64,000 nucleotides of DNA from an uncultured Verrucomicrobiae bacterium. GTDB taxonomy: Bacteria > Verrucomicrobiota > Verrucomicrobiia > Chthoniobacterales > Xiphinematobacteraceae. The DNA lies in contig CAVPNI010000002.1 in assembly GCA_963706715.1 (NCBI GenBank), forward strand, positions 256,001-320,000. Direction: 5' to 3'. This document shows, one piece after another, positions 1,344-47,434 of the stretch. A program made the position numbers and the translations under genes. The notes beneath the pieces are model-generated. The model made no database searches. It had not been told where the DNA came from and saw only the letters and a list, made by a program, of their open reading frames with translations. Position 1 is the first letter of the stretch, and each line of letters opens with the position of its first letter.

Positions 1344-2234
1344 ATGACTGACTGGAAATCCTTCCCGCTCACACTGGGTCACTCGCCTGACCCCGATGAT
1401 GCTTTTATGTTTTATGCCATGGCTGAAGAGAAAATCGATCTTCGAGGTTATCGATTTGAGCACATCCTTCAGGATATTCAAACGTTGAATGAACGCGCCG
1501 TTCGGGGAGAGCTTCATATTTCAGCCGTCTCTATTCACGCATGCGCTTTTATCTTGGATAAGTATGCCCTTCTCCCCAGTGGCGCAAGTATGGGAGACGG
1601 CTATGGCCCCATGTTCATCGCCCCCGAAGGCATGAATTTGCCCAGCCCTTCCGATTGGAAAATGTGCCGGGAGTGGCTCTTAAGTAAGCGTATCGCCATT
1701 CCGGGCCGGATGACTACAGCATACTTGGCCGCACGGATCTTTCTGGGCGACTTCGATCATATCGTCATTGCCTTCGACGAAATTTTCTCGGCCGTGCAAA
1801 GTGGAAAAGCAGACGCCGGTCTCATTATTCATGAGGGCCAATTGACTTATCAAAATGAAGGCTTTACAAAGGTACTCGATCTTGGCGAATGGTGGAAGGC
1901 TCGTACCCAGCTCCCTCTCCCTTTAGGCGGCAACGTCATTCGCAAAGATATCCCCGCACCTGTCCGTAAAGAGATCTCCGAAATCCTAACGGAAAGTATC
2001 CGCTATGGATTGACATACCGGCAACCGGCTGTAAATCACAGCATGGCCCACGCTCGTGGAATGGATGCTGCTCTCGCCGATAAATTTATCGGAATGTATG
2101 TCAATGAATACACGCTCGACTATGGCGACAAGGGACATCAGGCCATATGCAAGCTATTTTCCGACGCCCATGAGAATGGCCTCATTCCCAAAGTCTTCGC
2201 CAGTTTCTTTTATAGCATGACACCTATAAAATGA
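1344..2234 (+). CDS. mqnD: 1,4-dihydroxy-6-naphthoate synthase MqnD (futalosine menaquinone pathway); last codons and stop come from a MITE
   Basis: GHSPDPDDAFMFYA, DIQTLN, GASMGDGYGP, LIIHEGQLTY, LPLPLGGN. Confidence 0.9.
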   Translation: MTDWKSFPLTLGHSPDPDDAFMFYAMAEEKIDLRGYRFEHILQDIQTLNERAVRGELHISAVSIHACAFILDKYALLPSGASMGDGYGPMFIAPEGMNLPSPSDWKMCREWLLSKRIAIPGRMTTAYLAARIFLGDFDHIVIAFDEIFSAVQSGKADAGLIIHEGQLTYQNEGFTKVLDLGEWWKARTQLPLPLGGNVIRKDIPAPVRKEISEILTESIRYGLTYRQPAVNHSMAHARGMDAALADKFIGMYVNEYTLDYGDKGHQAICKLFSDAHENGLIPKVFASFFYSMTPIK

Positions 2235-2347
2235 CACATGAGTTGTCCGAGATTTTTTCTTCAGAGTTTGTTTTAACAAGCTGGCCATATCTGTAGATAC
2301 GGACGGATTGTTGAAACAAACTCTGGGGGAACACCGAGCCGTGGGAA
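2213..2347. mobile_element. half copy of IS630-type MITE (family A), broken by the group II intron
   Basis: TA + TAGCATGACACCTATAAAATGAC TIR; near-identical to the copy starting at 42585 and to the reverse complement of the right part of 46961..47431. Confidence 0.88.
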
Positions 2348-4420
2348 ATCGAGTAGGAACCCTCATCACTGAGGGCTCCTCTCACAGAACCGTACTTGTG
2401 CTGTTCACATACGGCTCTTCGGAAACACGGGTTATGACCCCCATGGTTGGTATTACAACCTCGACTATTCAGAATGCCCATACGTATTGCATTGGCTTCT
2501 GAGCGGCCATGCGCGCAGGATGTTCCCTATACCGTTGTAGCAATGACTTGAGCCCGCGTGCATCCCAAAGGGAATTCTTCAGTACTCTGTCAACTGCTGT
2601 TGTGTGACTCAGCGCCCACCAGGACTTTCGTCCCGAGTAAATGCTGCGCCACGCGGTTTTGGGATTGATCCCGAGCCCAATCAGTTTACGAACGATGGTT
2701 CGTTTGCATTTGTATTGCTTGAGTTCCATTGCTCGCAGTCGCCTGCGAATGTGGGCGTCAAGTCCTTGCAGCGTCTTCTCGACTTGTTCTGTACAGATGC
2801 CAAAGAAGCCTGTCCATCCGATCACGTAGGCATTGATTTTGTTGATGCACGATTTTAAGGTGCCTCCCCAATTTCTCGGTGTCAGTTCTCGGATTTTGTT
2901 GTTTATGCGTTCTTTTGTTCGCTTTGACAACCTCACTTCTACGTTGCCCTCTAAGGGTTCACGTCGCAGGCTACAGCCCAGGAAGTGACGCTCTTGTGGC
3001 TGTGCCACGGCACTTTTGCTGAGGTTCACTTTGAGACGCAAGCGCCTTTCTATGAAGTTGCTCACGCTAGCCATGACACGCTGCCCAGCTCGTTCGCTTC
3101 TGACGTAGATGTTACCGTCATCGGCATAACGTACGAAGCGGTGGCCTCTTGCTTGCAGCTCCCAATCGAGTTCATCAAGCACGATGTTGCTGAGCAATGG
3201 GCTGAGGGGACCACCTTGCGGAACCCCCTCGTCGTTGCTCACCACTACGCCATCTGGCATTACAATTCGCGCTTTGAGCATTTGTCCAATCAGGTGCAGT
3301 AGTCTTTTGTCTTTTACTCGCTGCGCGAGTTTGGACATCAGTCTTTGATGGTTTACTCGGTTGAAGAAGTTCTCCAGGTCGATGTCTACCACCCATTCGC
3401 GTCCCTCTTGTATATACTCTTGTGCTTGTCGTATTGCTGTGTGGCAGCTTCGTTGGGGTCGAAATCCGTGACTGTTAGGGTGGAAGGTCGGCTCGTATTC
3501 TGGTTCCAGAACCTGTCGTACTGCTTCTTGGACCACCCGGTCTATCACGTTGGGTATGCCTAGACCCCTTTGTCCTCCTCCTGTTTTAGGTATCCACACG
3601 CGCCGAATTTCTCCAGGTCGGTAGTTTCCTTCTATCAGGGCTTGGCTCAATTTCGGTATTAGCTCGTTGAGGTGCTTGCGCACTTGTTCTATGCTTTGCC
3701 GATCTGGTCCAGGCGCTCCTTTGTTGCTCGCTACTGTTTCAAACGCCCCCTTTAATCTTCGTTCTACTTCTTCCATGGTCGCTGTCGTTGCTTTCTCTGG
3801 CTTGAGTTTTGGCATTGGCGGCGCGCACGCTCGAGCCGAGCTTCGGTGCTCCGCCCTTGCGCCGTCGCTGGGAGTTTGCACCCCCTCTTCGGCTGTTCCA
3901 AATTTCAGTTCAAGTTGCATTGACATTCGTTCGACCGCAACCGCCTTCGCTCCCCCAGTTTGCTTTCGCCGCTGGGTTGGGACTAGCTTTCGCTAGCCTT
4001 CTTGCTACTATGCAGTTGTCTGACTTCTGTTGGGCCTTTGGCCTTTCGTTCTTTCGTCCTACGGGTTTGCGCCAGGCTTTGGCCTGGCGCGGCCCAACAG
4101 ATCTCTCTGGGTAAGAATTAACAAACTTCGTACTCTTGTCGTCGCCACTACACATGCAGTCCCCAACAGATTTTGGATTTCGCCACCGCCGGCTGGCTCG
4201 TCCACTGCATGCGCCTTACGGCGCTTCACTTTCGTTCGACTATCGTACGCACCTATAGCTTCTACCGTACATCCCCTCACGGGCCTTCCAGCGTTTGCTT
4301 CCCTCTGGTTGGGCTGTGGTTCTCCACTGCAATGCACTTGCCTCTTCGGTGTTAGGTTCCCTCTGTCAGGGCCCTAGGTTTGGATTTTCACCTCCTGTTT
4401 GTTATTCATGCCAGACACAC
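2348..4420 (-). mobile_element. group II intron, class IIC-like
   Basis: Minus strand starts GTGTGTCTGGCATG (GUGYG) at 4420; domain V GAGCCGTATGTGAACAGCACAAGTACGGTTC; domain VI ends ...CCTACTCGAT at 2348; RT ORF inside. Confidence 0.93.
2469..3926 (-). CDS. ltrA: group II intron reverse transcriptase/maturase (no endonuclease domain evident)
   Basis: NKGAPGPD, RRVWIPK..GG.R.LGIP, GVPQGGPLSPLLSNI, RYADD, X domain; start may be downstream of 3926. Confidence 0.95.
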   Translation of the reverse strand: MSMQLELKFGTAEEGVQTPSDGARAEHRSSARACAPPMPKLKPEKATTATMEEVERRLKGAFETVASNKGAPGPDRQSIEQVRKHLNELIPKLSQALIEGNYRPGEIRRVWIPKTGGGQRGLGIPNVIDRVVQEAVRQVLEPEYEPTFHPNSHGFRPQRSCHTAIRQAQEYIQEGREWVVDIDLENFFNRVNHQRLMSKLAQRVKDKRLLHLIGQMLKARIVMPDGVVVSNDEGVPQGGPLSPLLSNIVLDELDWELQARGHRFVRYADDGNIYVRSERAGQRVMASVSNFIERRLRLKVNLSKSAVAQPQERHFLGCSLRREPLEGNVEVRLSKRTKERINNKIRELTPRNWGGTLKSCINKINAYVIGWTGFFGICTEQVEKTLQGLDAHIRRRLRAMELKQYKCKRTIVRKLIGLGINPKTAWRSIYSGRKSWWALSHTTAVDRVLKNSLWDARGLKSLLQRYREHPARMAAQKPMQYVWAF

Positions 4421-4872
4421 CGATGAAAGCGGCTTTGCCGAGGATATGCCCAGAAGATATGGCTATGCTGATAAAGGAAAACGCTCTTTTGGAAAACATG
4501 ATTGGCATAAGCAGGCTAGAACTAATGTCATTGGGGCTTTGGTAGGAGCTTGTTTACTCACGACCGGCCTCTTTACGAGTTCCATAAATGGCGACATTTT
4601 CCATAACTGGGTGCAAGAAGACCTTTTGCCAAAACTACCGAAAAATTCGGTGATCGTTATGGATAATGCTACCTTTCATAAGAGAAGTGATACACAAGCT
4701 CTGATAAAAGAGGCTGGTTGTACGCTGGAATATCTCCCTACTTACTCTCCGGATCTTAATCCTATTGAACATAAATGGGCTCAAGCTATAGCTCGCCGTA
4801 GAAGTCTCCAATGTTCCATAATTTCCCTTTTTTTAGATAATTATTTGTAATCATTTTATACGGGCCTTGCTA
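4421..4872 (+). pseudogene. IS630-family element, 3' half (DDE domain plus right TIR)
   Basis: DESGF...VMDNATFH...LPTYSPDLNPIE to stop at 4850; TIR TCATTTTATACGGGCCTTGCTA then TA; N-terminus missing. Confidence 0.9.
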
Positions 4873-4875
4873 TAA

Positions 4876-6274
4876 CCCTACAGTTGTCGTTTAGAATGAA
4901 AAAATTTAGCGACAGCTTGGTGAGCTCTGCGCCAAAGGGACCAAGCGATGATAAAAGCAGGTTGGAGAGATCGGAAGATTAAACGTGTAACAAGGCGTCG
5001 AATTTCCTGGATAGACCAGCAAACCAGAGACTTGTTGAGGGAGGAAGCTGCGTTCTGCTTTTTTTGTGTAAGGTGGAGTTATTCACCCGATAACGGATGA
5101 TTGCCAGTAGAGAAAAAGCAAGCATCACCAGGGAAACATGGCGATGCCAGCCATGCCAGGAACGGGTTTCGTTGTGATCAAGACCAAACTCATTTTTAGC
5201 TGTTTCAAAACTTTCCTCGATCCTCCATCGTGCTCCTGCCACATTGACTAATGTTTGGAGAGAAGTTGTCTTTGGACACCAGGTAGTGTAATAGGAACAT
5301 TTTCCATCCTCGATGTTGCGCCGGATGAGAAGGCCGCTAGTCCAAATTCCAGTGTAGTTTTTGTTATATTGGGAGGCATCCACATTGTTCCATTTGAAGT
5401 AAGCCCAATCATAGAGCCTGGCACCCTTGGTTCCTTCGCCAGCTGATAAGCGTTTCCAGCGGCAGGCAGGTAATTTACTGGCTAGCTCCTCAGCTGTTGT
5501 AACTCGAACACTTTCCTTTTTATTATCCCACAAGTAGTATTGCCGCCTCGATGTAGTACCTAATACATAGCCCTTACATGTTTTACGTAATGTTTCGGTC
5601 ACTTCAGAAATTCCATAGACGCTATCTGCTGCAACCCAGGAAAAGGGAATTTTAGCTTCTATGGTTTCCTCTATCATTTTCCGAGCTATGGTAGGCTTTG
5701 TCGAAAATTTTTGCTCAACTGGGATATGCGCCGCTGCTCTGCGTGTTTGGTCTTCTATCCATTCTTTGGGTAAATAGAGTTTCCTATCAATAAAGGCGTA
5801 CCCTTTACTGGAAACATAGGCTGCAAAAACTCCAATCTGACAATTAGTGATTTTTCCTACTGTGCCGGTGTATTGGGGAGCCACTCCACAAGTAGCTTTT
5901 CCTTTTTTGAGAAATCCGGTTTCGTCAATCACTAGTATTCCTTCTTCCTCCCCAAAATGTTCTATTACATATTCCCTCACTGTCTCTTTGAGTCGGTCGG
6001 CTTCCCATCTCCTTCGGCCTAATATCGCTTGTTGCCGCCAGGGGCCTTTATCCCCAGCTGCCTCTGCTCTCATCCATCCGGTTTTCCGTGGTTCGTTTCC
6101 TAGAAGCCCTTCCAAAAATAATTCCGCATTTCTTGCCACTCTCTTCTGCATAAATAGCGGCTTGATTTTTTCCTGGATCTCCTTCATTCCCTCTTTCCAT
6201 ATCTCTATTGTTTCCTCTGCTGTTGCTGTCACCCTTAAATCTACACCTCTTCTTTCTAAATGACAACTGTAGGG
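4876..6274 (-). mobile_element. IS701-family insertion sequence
   Basis: TIRs CCCTACAGTTGTC(G/A)TTTAGAA at both ends; transposase inside. Confidence 0.9.
4878..6232 (-). CDS. IS701 transposase; ORF 6232..4979 with a -1 frame C-terminal extension to 4878 via an A7 tract
   Basis: IDETGFLKKG, GVAPQYTGT.GK..NCQ, RWRIEESFETAK.EFGLDHNETRSW; the -1 frame encodes WSIQEIRRL...WSLWRRAHQ..A...H.KRQL*. Confidence 0.88.
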
Positions 6275-6365
6275 CTATGCCGCTCTTCCAAAGAGCTAGC
6301 GTTTCCTCTATTGTTGCTGACATTTTTATTCATTCCATTGTTTCTAAAAAAACGCAACTGTAGTG
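6275..6365 (-). pseudogene. 5' remnant of a second, divergent IS701
   Basis: Encodes MSATIEETLALWK (cf. MTATAEETIEIWK of the adjacent copy); end CAACTGTAGTG followed by CTAG. Confidence 0.8.
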
Positions 6366-6400
6366 CTAGGCAATAAATAAGACTACAATAAATTAATAAC

Positions 6401-7250
6401 GTAACTATTCAGCCATCAGGTGAAGGATAAAGAAGGAAAGCATAAAAAGATCAGATCTTTTTGAGTAAAATTGTTTCAGGCAAAGCTGGAATTTTGGTAT
6501 AAAAAGAAACTGGAATGGAAAAGCTCCCGGATTTAAAGCGACTCAGCGACGAAGAAAAAGATGCACTAATTATACGGCTATGGGCAGTGGTGCAAGAGCA
6601 GGGACGGCAAATAGAGAGACTAGTTGCACGGGTGAAGGAACTGGAAGGCAAGCTTTCATTAAACAGTCGCAATTCCAGCAAACCACCCTCAAGTGACGGG
6701 TTGAATAAACCCAAACCCAAATCTTTGCGTCCAGTGGGACAGCGTCCTTGCGGAGGGCAAAAAGGACATCCTGGTATTACCTTGAGACAAGTGGAAGAAC
6801 CCGATGAAGTCATTGTTCATGAGGTGCCCAGGGTTTGTGAAGTATGCCAAAGGAAATTGAATCCCAAACTACGTGAGATTTCTCGCCAAGTTTTTGATTT
6901 GCCTGAGCCACGTTTGAAAGTCACCGAACATCGGGTAGAAGAAGCAGTGTGTTCTTGTGGAAAAGAGTACATGGCGGAGTTTACAAGCGATGTCACAAAC
7001 ACAGTGCAATATGGTGCAGTAGCTCAAGCCATGATGGTGTATCTGAGCCATCAACACATGGTGCCGGCCAAGCGCACAGCCCAGCTGATGGGAGAGATGT
7101 TGGGGCAACCTGTTTGCTCAGCTACTGTGCAGCAAGCTTGTGCCAAAGCGGCGCAGCGCTTGACTACTACCGTTAAAGCTATCGCTCAGGCTGTGCAAAA
7201 TTCTGCTGTAGTACATGCTGACGAGACCGGTTTGCGTGTGAACAAAAAAT
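6401..7250 (+). pseudogene. IS66-family (single-ORF type) element, 5' part; transposase from 6515 truncated by ISL3
   Basis: GTAACTATTCAG end; NSRNSSKPPSSD, GGQKGHPG, zinc-finger CxxC, RQVFDLP, HADETG immediately before the ISL3 end. Confidence 0.88.
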
Positions 7251-8738
7251 GGCTCTATAAAAGAATTCGTGGGTAAAAAATAGAGTTAGCAGGGGGGCTG
7301 GTGCCGCCCCCAGACCCCCGCACCGCTCGCCGCGGCAGGCGTTCAGGGGGAACAGGGGGGGAGCAGTGCTGAAAGGTAGCAAGAGGATCGGATCGGTTCC
7401 TTGGGTATTAGGGCGGAGCGTAAAAAAGAGGCTGGCGGCACCCAAAAGGGTACCTATAAACCAGCCTCTGTGGTAAATATAACGCTTAAAAATGTAATGA
7501 GGCGGGTACATCCGATCAAGGGATTTGTCTATGATGCGGTGGGATGGGACGATAAAGAAAAGGGAGTTATCTTAGCAGAAGTACGTGCCAGAGAAGGCAG
7601 CCAGGGAAGATGCTCAGGATGCAAACGTAAAGGATCTGGATATGATAGACTTGCAGAGCGGCGCTGGCGCTTTGTGCCACTTTGGGGTTTCGTGGTCTGG
7701 CTAGTCTACACACCGCGGCGAATTGACTGCCGACACTGTGGGAGTCCCACAGTAGAAGAACTTCCTTGGGCTAGCGGAAAAATACAGCACAGCGAAGCCT
7801 TCCCTCTCTTTCTGGCACAATGGGCACGCATGCTCTCCTGGGCCGAGGTAGCCAGAGTCTTCCGAGTGGGCTGGGCCGATGTATACGCTTCGGTAAAATG
7901 GGTGGTGGATTATGGCATTCAACATCGGGATTTAAGCGGCGTAAAGGCGCTTGGAGTTGATGAAATCCATGTCGGAAAAAAAGATAAGTTTTGGACACTG
8001 GTCTACCAGATCGATGATCACTGCAAACGACTTTTGTGGGTCGGGCGCGATCGTACTGAAAAAACTTTTGAGCTATTCTTCGAGGTTTTTGGCAAAGAGT
8101 TTTGTTCGGCCATCGGCTTTATTTGCTCCGACATGTGGAAACCGTATCTGAAGGTAGCAGCCCATTATTTGCCACAAGCCCTACATATCCTTGACCGCTT
8201 CCACATCGTTAAAAAACTCAACGAAGCTATCGATGAAATCCGCAGAGAGGAAACCCGCGCCCGTGCCCAGGCAGGTCTGGATCCCTTGCTTAAAAAGATG
8301 CGCTGGGCTTTCCTAAAAAAAAGATGCAATTGGACTAAGAGCCAACGTGCTGGCATGCGGGCAATTCGAGGCTCTGCTTTACGCACCCTGCGCGCCTTTC
8401 TCTTAGTGGAAACTTTCCAACACTTTTGGACCTATCGCTCTCCTACCTGGGCTGCTAAATTCCTGGATGCTTGGTGCACTAAAATTACTCGAAGTCACCT
8501 GGAGCCTCTTAAAAAAGTTGCCCGTACTCTCACCTCTCACCGCTCTCTTCTTTTAAATTACTTTCAGGCTAAAGGCCAATATTCCAGCGGTGTCGTTGAA
8601 GGGCTTAACGCCAAGGTGAAATTAACTCTAAAACGGAGTTATGGGTTTCGTACCGCTGATGCTCGTGAAGTTGCTCTTTACCATACCCTTGCTAATTTGC
8701 CTGAACCAATTTTTACCCACAGTTTTTTTTAGGCAGCC
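7251..8738 (+). mobile_element. ISL3-family IS, copy 1 (1488 bp)
   Basis: Ends GGCTCTATAAAAGAATTCGTGGGTAAAAA / TTTTTACCCACAGTTTTTTTTAGGCAGCC; near-identical to 25852..27339; no TSD. Confidence 0.93.
7401..8732 (+). CDS. ISL3 transposase (true start may be near 7470-7497)
   Basis: CxxC fingers, LGVDE, CSDMWKPY, DRFHIV, SSGVVEGLN.K.K...KRSYGFR. Confidence 0.92.
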   Translation: MGIRAERKKEAGGTQKGTYKPASVVNITLKNVMRRVHPIKGFVYDAVGWDDKEKGVILAEVRAREGSQGRCSGCKRKGSGYDRLAERRWRFVPLWGFVVWLVYTPRRIDCRHCGSPTVEELPWASGKIQHSEAFPLFLAQWARMLSWAEVARVFRVGWADVYASVKWVVDYGIQHRDLSGVKALGVDEIHVGKKDKFWTLVYQIDDHCKRLLWVGRDRTEKTFELFFEVFGKEFCSAIGFICSDMWKPYLKVAAHYLPQALHILDRFHIVKKLNEAIDEIRREETRARAQAGLDPLLKKMRWAFLKKRCNWTKSQRAGMRAIRGSALRTLRAFLLVETFQHFWTYRSPTWAAKFLDAWCTKITRSHLEPLKKVARTLTSHRSLLLNYFQAKGQYSSGVVEGLNAKVKLTLKRSYGFRTADAREVALYHTLANLPEPIFTHSFF

Positions 8739-46934: not shown

Positions 46935-46960
46935 TGATTTGCTGATGCGTCGCATCCTTA

Positions 46961-47431
46961 TAGCATGACCCCTATAAAATGACCATGCCTTGTCGTTCTT
47001 TTTGCCTCGCTTGGCTCCCGCCAAGTCTCGCCCCTGTGAGGGGGGCTGTCCGGCAAAGCCGGACAGGCTACCCCAGCCGTTCCCACGGCTCGGTGTTCCA
47101 CCAGACTTTGTTTCAACAATCCGTCCGTATCTAGAGCTTGTCCTGAAAACGGCAAAATTGCCCGGAAAAGTCTTTTTACTCTGTTGAATCCCTCTATTTT
47201 TATCCATTGATTCGGTTGTTTTTCAGTAATGCCAAAATTATAAATGCCTGATTTTGGGGAAAATGGCGTTTTTCTGTCTTTTTCTCAAAATTTTTTGCCT
47301 CTGGATCGGCTTCATTGCTGCTTCTACGGTTTCAGGACAAGCTCTATCTACAGATATGGCCAGCTTGTTAAAACAAACTCTGAAGAAAAAATCCCGGACA
47401 ACTCATGTGTCATTTTATAGGGGTCATGCTA
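46961..47431. mobile_element. complete MITE family A (about 254 bp without its insert), TA target duplication
   Basis: 23-bp perfect TIR TAGCATGACCCCTATAAAATGAC; TA at 46959-60 and 47432-33. Confidence 0.92.
47134..47344. mobile_element. nested 211-bp MITE (family B)
   Basis: TIR GAGCTTGTCCTGAAA / TTTCAGGACAAGCTC; TATCTA duplicated at 47128-33 and 47345-50; empty site present in the other two family A copies. Confidence 0.9.
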
Positions 47432-47434
47432 TAT

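Follow-up and report, generated by a model that had tools for sequence, protein, structure and literature searches.

A group II intron assigned to class C lies behind hairpin-rich 5′ exons in varied contexts of a repeat-rich Verrucomicrobiae genome

Class C group II introns (IIC introns) are described as inserting [quoted passage not shown], with a pairing of 3-4 bp between exon-binding site 1 (EBS1) of the intron and intron-binding site 1 (IBS1) of the 5′ exon, no EBS2, and a flexible spacing, reported as 3-11 nt, from the stem-loop to the insertion point (PMC1702495); their targeting of terminators and of attC sites has also been summarised (PMC4424553). In another class, the natural home of RmInt1 of Sinorhizobium meliloti is ISRm2011-2, an insertion sequence (IS) of the IS630 family (PMC4496777), where the intron lies within the transposase coding region and transposase expression needs splicing, and other class D introns have been noted in transposase and integrase genes (PMC4238363). 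Both the placement of IIC introns behind non-terminator inverted repeats and the presence of group II introns inside IS630-family elements are therefore already in print. We analysed a 64,000-nt stretch of DNA (the window; positions 256,001 to 320,000 of the forward strand of contig CAVPNI010000002.1, assembly GCA_963706715.1, here G000:C2:256001-320000) from an uncultured Verrucomicrobiae bacterium with a genome of 3.04 Mb in 4 contigs, which carries a complete group II intron on its minus strand at 2348..4420. The original prediction for this locus was a IIC-like intron with EBS1 = CGGU, specialised on hairpins within IS630-type elements and their miniature inverted-repeat transposable elements (MITEs). 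Our results very probably describe an ordinary, recently active IIC intron that inserts behind hairpins wherever they are found: the class and the combination of a short IBS1 with a stem-loop stood up to analysis, whereas the EBS1 register and the IS630/MITE specialisation did not.

The intron is 2073 nt long and runs from GUGUG to CGAU. Read on the minus strand, its 5′ junction is ...CGGCAAAGCCGCTTTCATCG followed by GTGTGTCTGG (4421/4420) and its 3′ junction is ...CCTACTCGAT followed by TTCCCACGG (2348/2347), which bears out the borders and flanking sequence that had been proposed. Distal domain I (4117..4286, minus strand) matches Rfam RF02001 (group-II-D1D4-3) over the full model (1-170) with 63.7 bits against a gathering score of 32, and domains V and VI (2348..2419, minus strand) match RF00029 with 46.1 bits against a gathering score of 40. 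The hallmarks of group II introns are present, namely the GUGUG 5′ end, domain V, the 3′ end ...GAU and, ahead of that end, a bulged A in domain VI, where pairing was judged by eye from the RF00029 alignment. In domain V, which comprises 31 nt (GAGCCGUAU-GUG-AACAG-CAC-AA-GUACGGUUC), the triad is AGC, the distal stem has 3 bp and the bulge is AA. Domain IV contains an open reading frame (ORF; 2469..3926, minus strand) for a reverse transcriptase (RT)/maturase of 485 aa counted from the first ATG, with YADD present; the true start probably lies later than this ATG.

Taken together, the Rfam domains, the RT matches, the short domain V and the lack of an endonuclease domain support class C, in agreement with the original prediction. 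Features given for this class are a domain V distal stem 2 bp shorter than in classes IIA and IIB, a CGC in place of the AGC triad of domain V, and, in the epsilon-prime region, a bulge of 11 nt in which AGGAA is conserved (PMC1702495). The 3-bp distal stem agrees with the first of these, and the intron 5′ region reads ...ACAGGAGGUGAAA..., with AGGAG versus AGGAA in a comparison of primary sequence only. The best solved-structure match of the RT was that of GsI-IIC from Geobacillus stearothermophilus (PDB 6ar1; 2.1e-116, 392.7 bits), aligned over ORF residues 58-468 and up to residue 416 of the 428-aa chain, near its C-terminus. The GsI-IIC intron is highly proliferated in its host and is the closest solved relative by protein, the comparison covering the protein alone. 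The second match was 7uim, a chain titled group II intron RT/maturase (2.5e-84, 286.9 bits), followed by 5hhj and 5hhl, chains titled retron-type RT (about 5e-66, about 226 bits); we take 5hhj and 5hhl, as well as 7uim, to be IIC-intron RTs. More distant were the IIA protein LtrA (7.6e-40, 140 bits) and the 6me0 maturase RT (7.8e-28, 101 bits), and the class C lineage of the RT was judged from these ranked PDB matches. Pfam returned RVT_1 (5.8e-41), GIIM (6e-14) and nothing else for the ORF, so that neither Pfam nor the alignment to the GsI-IIC RT, which reaches near the C-terminus, revealed an endonuclease domain in the RT/maturase. With its RT/maturase free of an endonuclease domain, its small ribozyme and its shortened domain V, the intron is like the B.h.I1-type class C introns of Bacillus halodurans (Toor et al. 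2006, PMC1702495).

A blastn search of the genome recovered nine full-length copies and nine partial matches. Seven of the full-length copies are at least 99.95% identical, and the remaining two are 96.0% and 88.4% identical. The 5′ exon ends in YYG at 11 of 13 junctions (binomial at 1/16, P = 3.9e-12), the ends being TCTG, CCCG, ACCG, ATCG, GCTG, TTCG, GCCG, ACCG, CCCG, GTTG and TCCG; the two junctions that depart from this rule belong to a degenerate fragment (ACCA) and to a head-to-tail tandem (CGAT). By eye, the 11 YYG junctions of these near-identical copies have no conserved bases upstream of position -3, G occurs at -4 in three of them, and the first base of the 3′ exon varies, with A, T, C and G all seen. 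Because nothing is shared upstream of YYG beyond the occasional G at -4, the guide is effectively 3 bp long with no IBS2, and, judged from the exon side, there is no EBS2/IBS2 pairing.

The guide sits in a stem-loop at 4183..4196 (minus strand), in which CCA (4196-4194) pairs with UGG (4185-4183) around an 8-nt loop, GCCGGCGG (4193-4186). The Rfam structure and an RNAalifold consensus of eight sequences agree on this hairpin, whose closing pair still pairs with both sides changed in five of the eight. For covariation, 54 loci encoding RT relatives were fetched and, together with L002 and L003, a total of 56 were searched for intron 5′ ends by profile; 29 gave a match and an aligned loop was readable in 23 (L002, L046, L048, L051, L056 and L064, in which the loop was not aligned, were left out), giving with the window a set of 24 introns and 19 distinct exon/loop combinations. 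In this set, pairing between loop positions 3-5 and exon positions -1 to -3 holds for 55 of the 57 cells, and pairing over 4 bp (loop positions 3-6 against exon positions -1 to -4) for 69 of 76; 0 of 2000 shuffles reached either value, and all five other registers score at the shuffle mean. Because covariation fixes loop positions 3-6, EBS1 is C4191-G4190-G4189 with C4188 as a possible fourth base (4188..4191, minus strand), pairing with IBS1 (G)YYG. This assignment lies three bases 5′ of the CGGU previously proposed. The sequence does read CGGT at plus-strand 4185-4188 and the loop had been chosen correctly, but on the minus strand this CGGU (4185..4188) covers the final three bases of the loop and the opening base of the stem, U4185, which pairs with A4194, and as register 6 it scores at chance level (20 of 57 cells for 3 bp and 29 of 76 for 4 bp). 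Independent support for the corrected register comes from the 88%-identical copy, in which the CGG of the earlier register has become CAG (CAGU), yet the exon still ends CCCG. CGG occurs twice in a row in the loop, and the earlier guess therefore predicted the same last three exon bases. The resulting EBS1-IBS1 pairing of only 3-4 bp is that described for IIC introns. Among the relatives, exon ends such as GGGA, GCGG, AACC and CTTG are each matched by their own loop, and the clade with an AGC triad and GC-type targets illustrates that IIC introns swap the 3-bp guide freely and keep the hairpin requirement. The main value of the analysis is for annotation, through this corrected EBS1 assignment.

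We then folded the 40 nt upstream of the 12 non-tandem junctions with DNA folding parameters and compared them with 3000 random YYG sites of the same genome. The 5′ exons fold better than the control sites (Mann-Whitney p = 1.8e-6), and seven of the 12 fall within the lowest 5% of controls by folding energy. The stretch left unpaired between the stem and the insertion point measures 0-9 nt in 11 of 12 sites; a short unpaired tail was considered as a distinctive trait and set aside, a tail of at most 6 nt being present in 10 of 12 sites versus 66-73% of controls. The target type that had been proposed, a short IBS1 with a stem-loop upstream, is consistent with these results, since AUCG and GCCG both conform to the YYG consensus and hairpins are enriched in the 5′ exons. 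The strongest hairpin, at -16.5 kcal/mol, belongs to the MITE A site, which is also the sole perfect 4-bp match (GCCG) to the corrected EBS1. The IS630 site of the window copy, for which a good hairpin had been suggested, is among the weakest, at -3.5 kcal/mol and the 29.5th percentile of the 3000 controls; its hairpin, CGGC-AAA-GCCG (4430..4440, minus strand), has a 4-bp stem and lies 9 nt from the insertion point.

The contexts of these 12 junctions are varied. Three of them lie in IS630 (site D, the window copy), in MITE A (site G, C3:220740) or in MITE B (site I, C3:603990), the last being about 75% similar to part of MITE A, and nine lie elsewhere. Among the latter, site E (C2:355234) is in an IS3-family element, 55 nt past the stop of the transposase ORF on the same strand; site B (C1:811560) is in a two-copy sequence with an ISL3 transposase ORF about 590 nt upstream; site H (C3:566500) is in an unclassified repeat; and site K (C3:216594) is in the antisense strand of another intron copy. 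Two junctions follow genes on the same strand, 35 nt past the stop of an SprT-like ORF (site A, C1:668250) and 76 nt past that of an AbiEii ORF (site F, C3:131817), one is antisense within an aldehyde dehydrogenase gene (site C, C2:18063), and two intron fragments lie in unique, unannotated DNA (site J, C1:455035; site L, C3:623543). No attC site or integron was seen among the identified IS, MITE, gene-end and gene targets, although no search aimed at them was made. Site H was considered as a second IS630-family target and rejected: tblastn with IS630 proteins on its flanks gave one weak match (E = 0.005), and the repeat merely abuts a truncated second IS630-like element (C2:32700-34500). The 5′ exon of H is not repeated by the megablast criterion given next, and the site was filed as an unclassified repeat. 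Repeated DNA (self-megablast, at least 80% identity over at least 80 bp) makes up 22.3% of the genome, 21.6% of random YYG sites and 25-38% of YYG sites with strong hairpins, and it contains the 5′ exons of six of the 12 junctions (seven with H).

These results would fit a mechanism in which the intron RNA recognises its target through EBS1 CGG(C) (4191-4188), pairing over 3, at most 4, bp with an exon end (G)YYG and using no EBS2/IBS2 pairing. A stem-loop just upstream, in DNA or RNA, would also be needed, as shown experimentally for other IIC introns, and the intron would reverse splice into single-stranded DNA. Landing behind many unrelated hairpins would follow from so loose a requirement, and with about 22% of the genome repeated, a good share of insertions would therefore fall in mobile elements. 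Such insertions may be harmless and so persist, in which case selection would be part of the cause of the excess in repeats.

Compared with introns of the B.h.I1 type (PMC1702495), the present intron shares the 3-4 bp EBS1-IBS1 pairing, the lack of EBS2, the 5′-exon stem-loop with flexible spacing and the occurrence of several near-identical copies behind unrelated hairpins. Unlike them, its IBS1 is of GC type (YYG) rather than U-rich, its targets have no T run, its domain V has an AGC rather than a CGC triad, and many of its targets lie within mobile elements and one within a gene. It is like IIC-attC introns such as S.ma.I2 in using non-terminator inverted repeats that belong to another mobile system (there the integron attC), and differs from them in that the hairpins are heterogeneous and do not form one defined recombination site (PMC4424553). 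The features of its own are the GC-type guide, the non-terminator hairpins, the sub-clade AGC triad and its probable part in rearranging a repeat-rich genome.

Both exons of the window copy are recognisable. The 5′ exon consists of 454 bp from the 3′ end of an element of the IS630 family (4421..4874, plus strand; the C-terminal part of the DDE_3 transposase and the right inverted repeat), which lies antisense to the intron and, over 1-454, shares about 99% identity with other copies. A Pfam match to DDE_3 (6.7e-30) for the plus-strand ORF 4380-4850, together with the intact copies, agrees with the antisense IS630 exon that had been described. Intact elements of about 890 bp (e.g., G000:C3:62871-63761) have the intron site within the YIDESG codons, on the antisense strand, and continue ...ATCG followed by ATATAGAC. 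The 3′ exon is the 3′ half of MITE A (2211..2347, minus strand), about 97% identical to other MITE A copies, of which there are about 30-45 and whose empty sites read ...CCCCAGCCG followed by TTCCCACGG. The reference copy at 46959..47433 (plus strand), recognised by sequence comparison, has an empty site at 47079/47080 as earlier described, with CTGTCCGGCAAAGCCGGACAG (47046-47066) and then GCTACCCCAGCCG followed by TTCCCACGG. A second small element is nested in this reference copy at about 47137-47344, splitting the match into 46959-47136 and 47345-47433. The terminal repeat of the MITE A half beside the intron (2211-2240) supplies the last codons and the stop (...FYSMTPIK*) of a menaquinone-biosynthesis gene at 1344-2234 (Pfam VitK2_biosynth). 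On its other side, the intron borders a cluster of mobile elements (4421-7276), in which the IS630 fragment is followed by a minus-strand DDE_5/DDE_Tnp_1 transposase (4979-6232) and by part of a transposase of the IS66 family (6515-7276).

Judged from the empty sites, the exons of the window copy are halves of two genuine targets. Of the IS630 site, the window copy has the 5′ half, and the 3′ half (ATATAGAC...) comes after copy C2:18063. For the MITE A site, the 5′ half is found ahead of copy C3:220740 and the window copy has the 3′ half. Copies C2:355234 and C3:131817 each have one half of the IS3 site. In the aldehyde dehydrogenase gene the break falls exactly at the intron, Pfam positions 1-194 abutting C2:355234 and positions 197-461 abutting C2:18063, and the gene halves are inverted and 335 kb apart on one contig. 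Two copies, C3:603990 (MITE B) and C3:566500, have kept matching exons. This pattern of exchanged flanks is consistent with homologous recombination between dispersed, near-identical copies, with at least one large inversion; recombination among such 2-kb copies would explain why the window copy joins an IS630 5′ half to a MITE A 3′ half, and suggests that a handful of retroelement copies helped to rearrange a genome that was already 22% repeats.

Relatives in other genomes place the intron in a wider group. The closest ones (L016-L025, L050) have RTs 54-79% identical and come from metagenome-assembled genomes (MAGs) labelled Pseudomonadota, Betaproteobacteria, Acidobacteriota, Actinomycetota and Ignavibacteriales, a taxonomic spread that suggests horizontal transfer. 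One acidobacterial MAG has at least four copies, with every 5′ exon ending CCCTTG, and one related intron lies about 280 nt past an EF-G gene. At eight related introns in other phyla, no transposase family was matched among 26 upstream ORFs (the longer ones, chosen from 67 ORFs of at least 70 aa), and an association with IS630 or other transposases was accordingly not seen in the relatives. In more distant class C relatives, the intron follows a classical terminator with its T run. The genus, as grouped by the tool, also includes two 0.9-Mb single-contig genomes. The lineage may be prone to genome reduction, with the present genome at a repeat-rich stage.

According to the original prediction, the lineage homes into the hairpin CGGCAAAGCCG of IS630 elements and their MITEs by means of EBS1 = CGGU, as a parasite of one DNA-transposon family. 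This 11-mer does occur upstream of both the IS630 and the MITE A insertion points, as had been noticed; the MITE A site combines the perfect GCCG match with the strongest hairpin and carries tandem introns; MITE B is occupied too, an intron fragment occurs in a MITE-B-like exon of a same-genus genome, and, by eye, the MITEs resemble IS630 in their terminal repeats. We nevertheless consider this explanation very improbable. The CGGU register performs at chance, IS630, MITE A and MITE B together account for three of the 12 5′ junctions and leave nine elsewhere, and related introns in other phyla had no transposase among the upstream ORFs compared. The 11-mer occurs 52 times in the genome, and its distance to the insertion point is unequal, 9 nt in IS630 versus 18 nt in MITE A. 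Occupancy, expected to be high, is 1 of 9 exact-match sites in IS630 and 1 of 32 in MITE A; exact-match sites that are empty come to 8 in IS630, 31 in MITE A, 8 in MITE B and 6 in the IS3 element. Relative to hairpin-rich controls, the excess in repeats is not significant (P 0.05 to 0.29 for six junctions). In a type of homing specific to an IS, the site would be long and specific and most copies occupied, and here only 3 bp are common among the sites. Of the outcome that had been named as refuting the prediction, one part was thus seen: across the copies, the hairpin and a YCG-like exon end that the prediction had envisaged are general, but the enrichment in IS630/MITE DNA is weak. IS630/MITE-specific homing is thus not supported, and finding the intron in IS630 and in a MITE does not establish a dedicated partnership and calls for no special explanation. 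A milder form of specificity, which we regard as possible but doubtful, is that the sub-lineage moderately prefers short GC-rich hairpins, often with 3-nt loops, over U-tailed terminators, MITEs and IS elements supplying such hairpins in bulk. The nearest hairpin has a 3-nt loop at four of 12 junctions (B, D, E and G) versus 16% of controls and at four of six independent sites of the closest relatives (L016/17, L018, L023, L050); none of the 12 targets is followed by a T run, and the terminators behind which the distant class C relatives sit do have one. However, the pattern was spotted post hoc, four of 12 falls short of significance (P = 0.11), the relatives were set against controls from another genome, and IIC introns behind "other inverted repeats" have already been described (PMC1702495). 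Extending this idea, we put forward, quite tentatively, that the IIC sub-lineage with an AGC triad and a GsI-IIC-like RT exchanged U-tailed terminators for short GC-rich hairpins, frequently with loops of 3 nt, ahead of a GC-type IBS1, that IS630-mobilised MITEs supply such hairpins in a lasting intron-MITE association, and that intron copies drive large inversions such as the 335-kb split. If so, the basis for the association would be the occupied MITE B here and the MITE-B-like exon with an intron fragment in the sister genome, and an intron within an intact MITE could be moved passively by the IS630 transposase.

Several observations weigh against an ordinary IIC intron that inserts behind any hairpin, the reading that we prefer. 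No T run follows the hairpin in any of the 12 5′ exons, unlike at classical IIC terminator targets, so that insertion after intrinsic terminators (a hairpin plus a T run), as given for the class, was not found among these sites, and the hairpins at sites H and D are weak. The excess in repeats is nominally significant when set against the 21.6% of random YYG sites (P = 0.028 for six junctions, 0.006 for seven), and some real preference for repeat-borne hairpins may exist. An 11-mer common to two targets would be unusual if the choice of hairpin were wholly non-specific, and in the same-genus genome G001 a fragment of the first 75 nt of the intron (85% identical) again has a MITE-B-like exon ahead of it, with GTTG as the exon end. 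Domain V has AGC as its triad rather than the IIC-typical CGC. The AGC triad is common to the eight closest relatives examined (L016, L017, L018, L019, L020, L023, L025 and L050), whereas 19 more distant loci with class-C-like RTs have CGC, and because most other class C features are present we read AGC as a trait of a class C sub-clade and not as exclusion from the class. (Four GGC domain V candidates in L020-L024 were false, lying inside the ORF; the real domain V of L020 was read separately.) Finally, the exchanged flanks of the window copy and of others could in principle be assembly errors across identical 2-kb repeats. Seven copies at least 99.95% identical over 2073 nt invite mis-joins, and the exchanged flanks chain through at least five copies. 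We nonetheless think such errors unlikely, since an assembly of 4 contigs for 3.04 Mb despite 22.3% repeats would imply reads longer than the repeats, and the inverted aldehyde dehydrogenase halves beside oppositely oriented copies are the arrangement expected when inverted repeats recombine and the DNA between them is turned round. The list of insertion sites is unaffected either way, whether the flanks were exchanged by recombination or by mis-joins.

RmInt1 offers a further comparison, as it too is a group II intron without an endonuclease domain whose target lies in an IS630-family transposase gene (PMC4496777, PMC4238363). It differs in being reported as class D, in using a long homing site recognised through EBS1 and EBS2, in lying in the sense strand, where splicing restores the transposase, and in occupying many copies of its IS (PMC4496777, PMC4238363); the present intron is of class IIC, lies antisense, relies on 3 bp plus a hairpin and occupies one of nine exact-match IS630 sites. 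A 5′-exon primer reported for RmInt1 contains ...TTCATCGATGAGA, which could encode F-I-D-E (PMC4238363). As a lead, RmInt1 may thus lie within a few bases of the homologous YIDE codons, on the opposite strand to the intron described here.

Intron copies have also accumulated upon one another outside the window, in a nest of pieces at C3:213370-220740. The MITE A site there holds two introns head to tail, the 96% variant followed by nt 1-567 of a 100% copy, an arrangement that may reflect a second insertion behind the retained 5′ exon. After this tandem comes a piece with nt 568-2073 in the opposite orientation, whose antisense strand has taken up another copy at nt 567/568. The inserted copy is in turn broken: about 1.1 kb of other DNA follows its nt 428, and nt 425-428 are duplicated.

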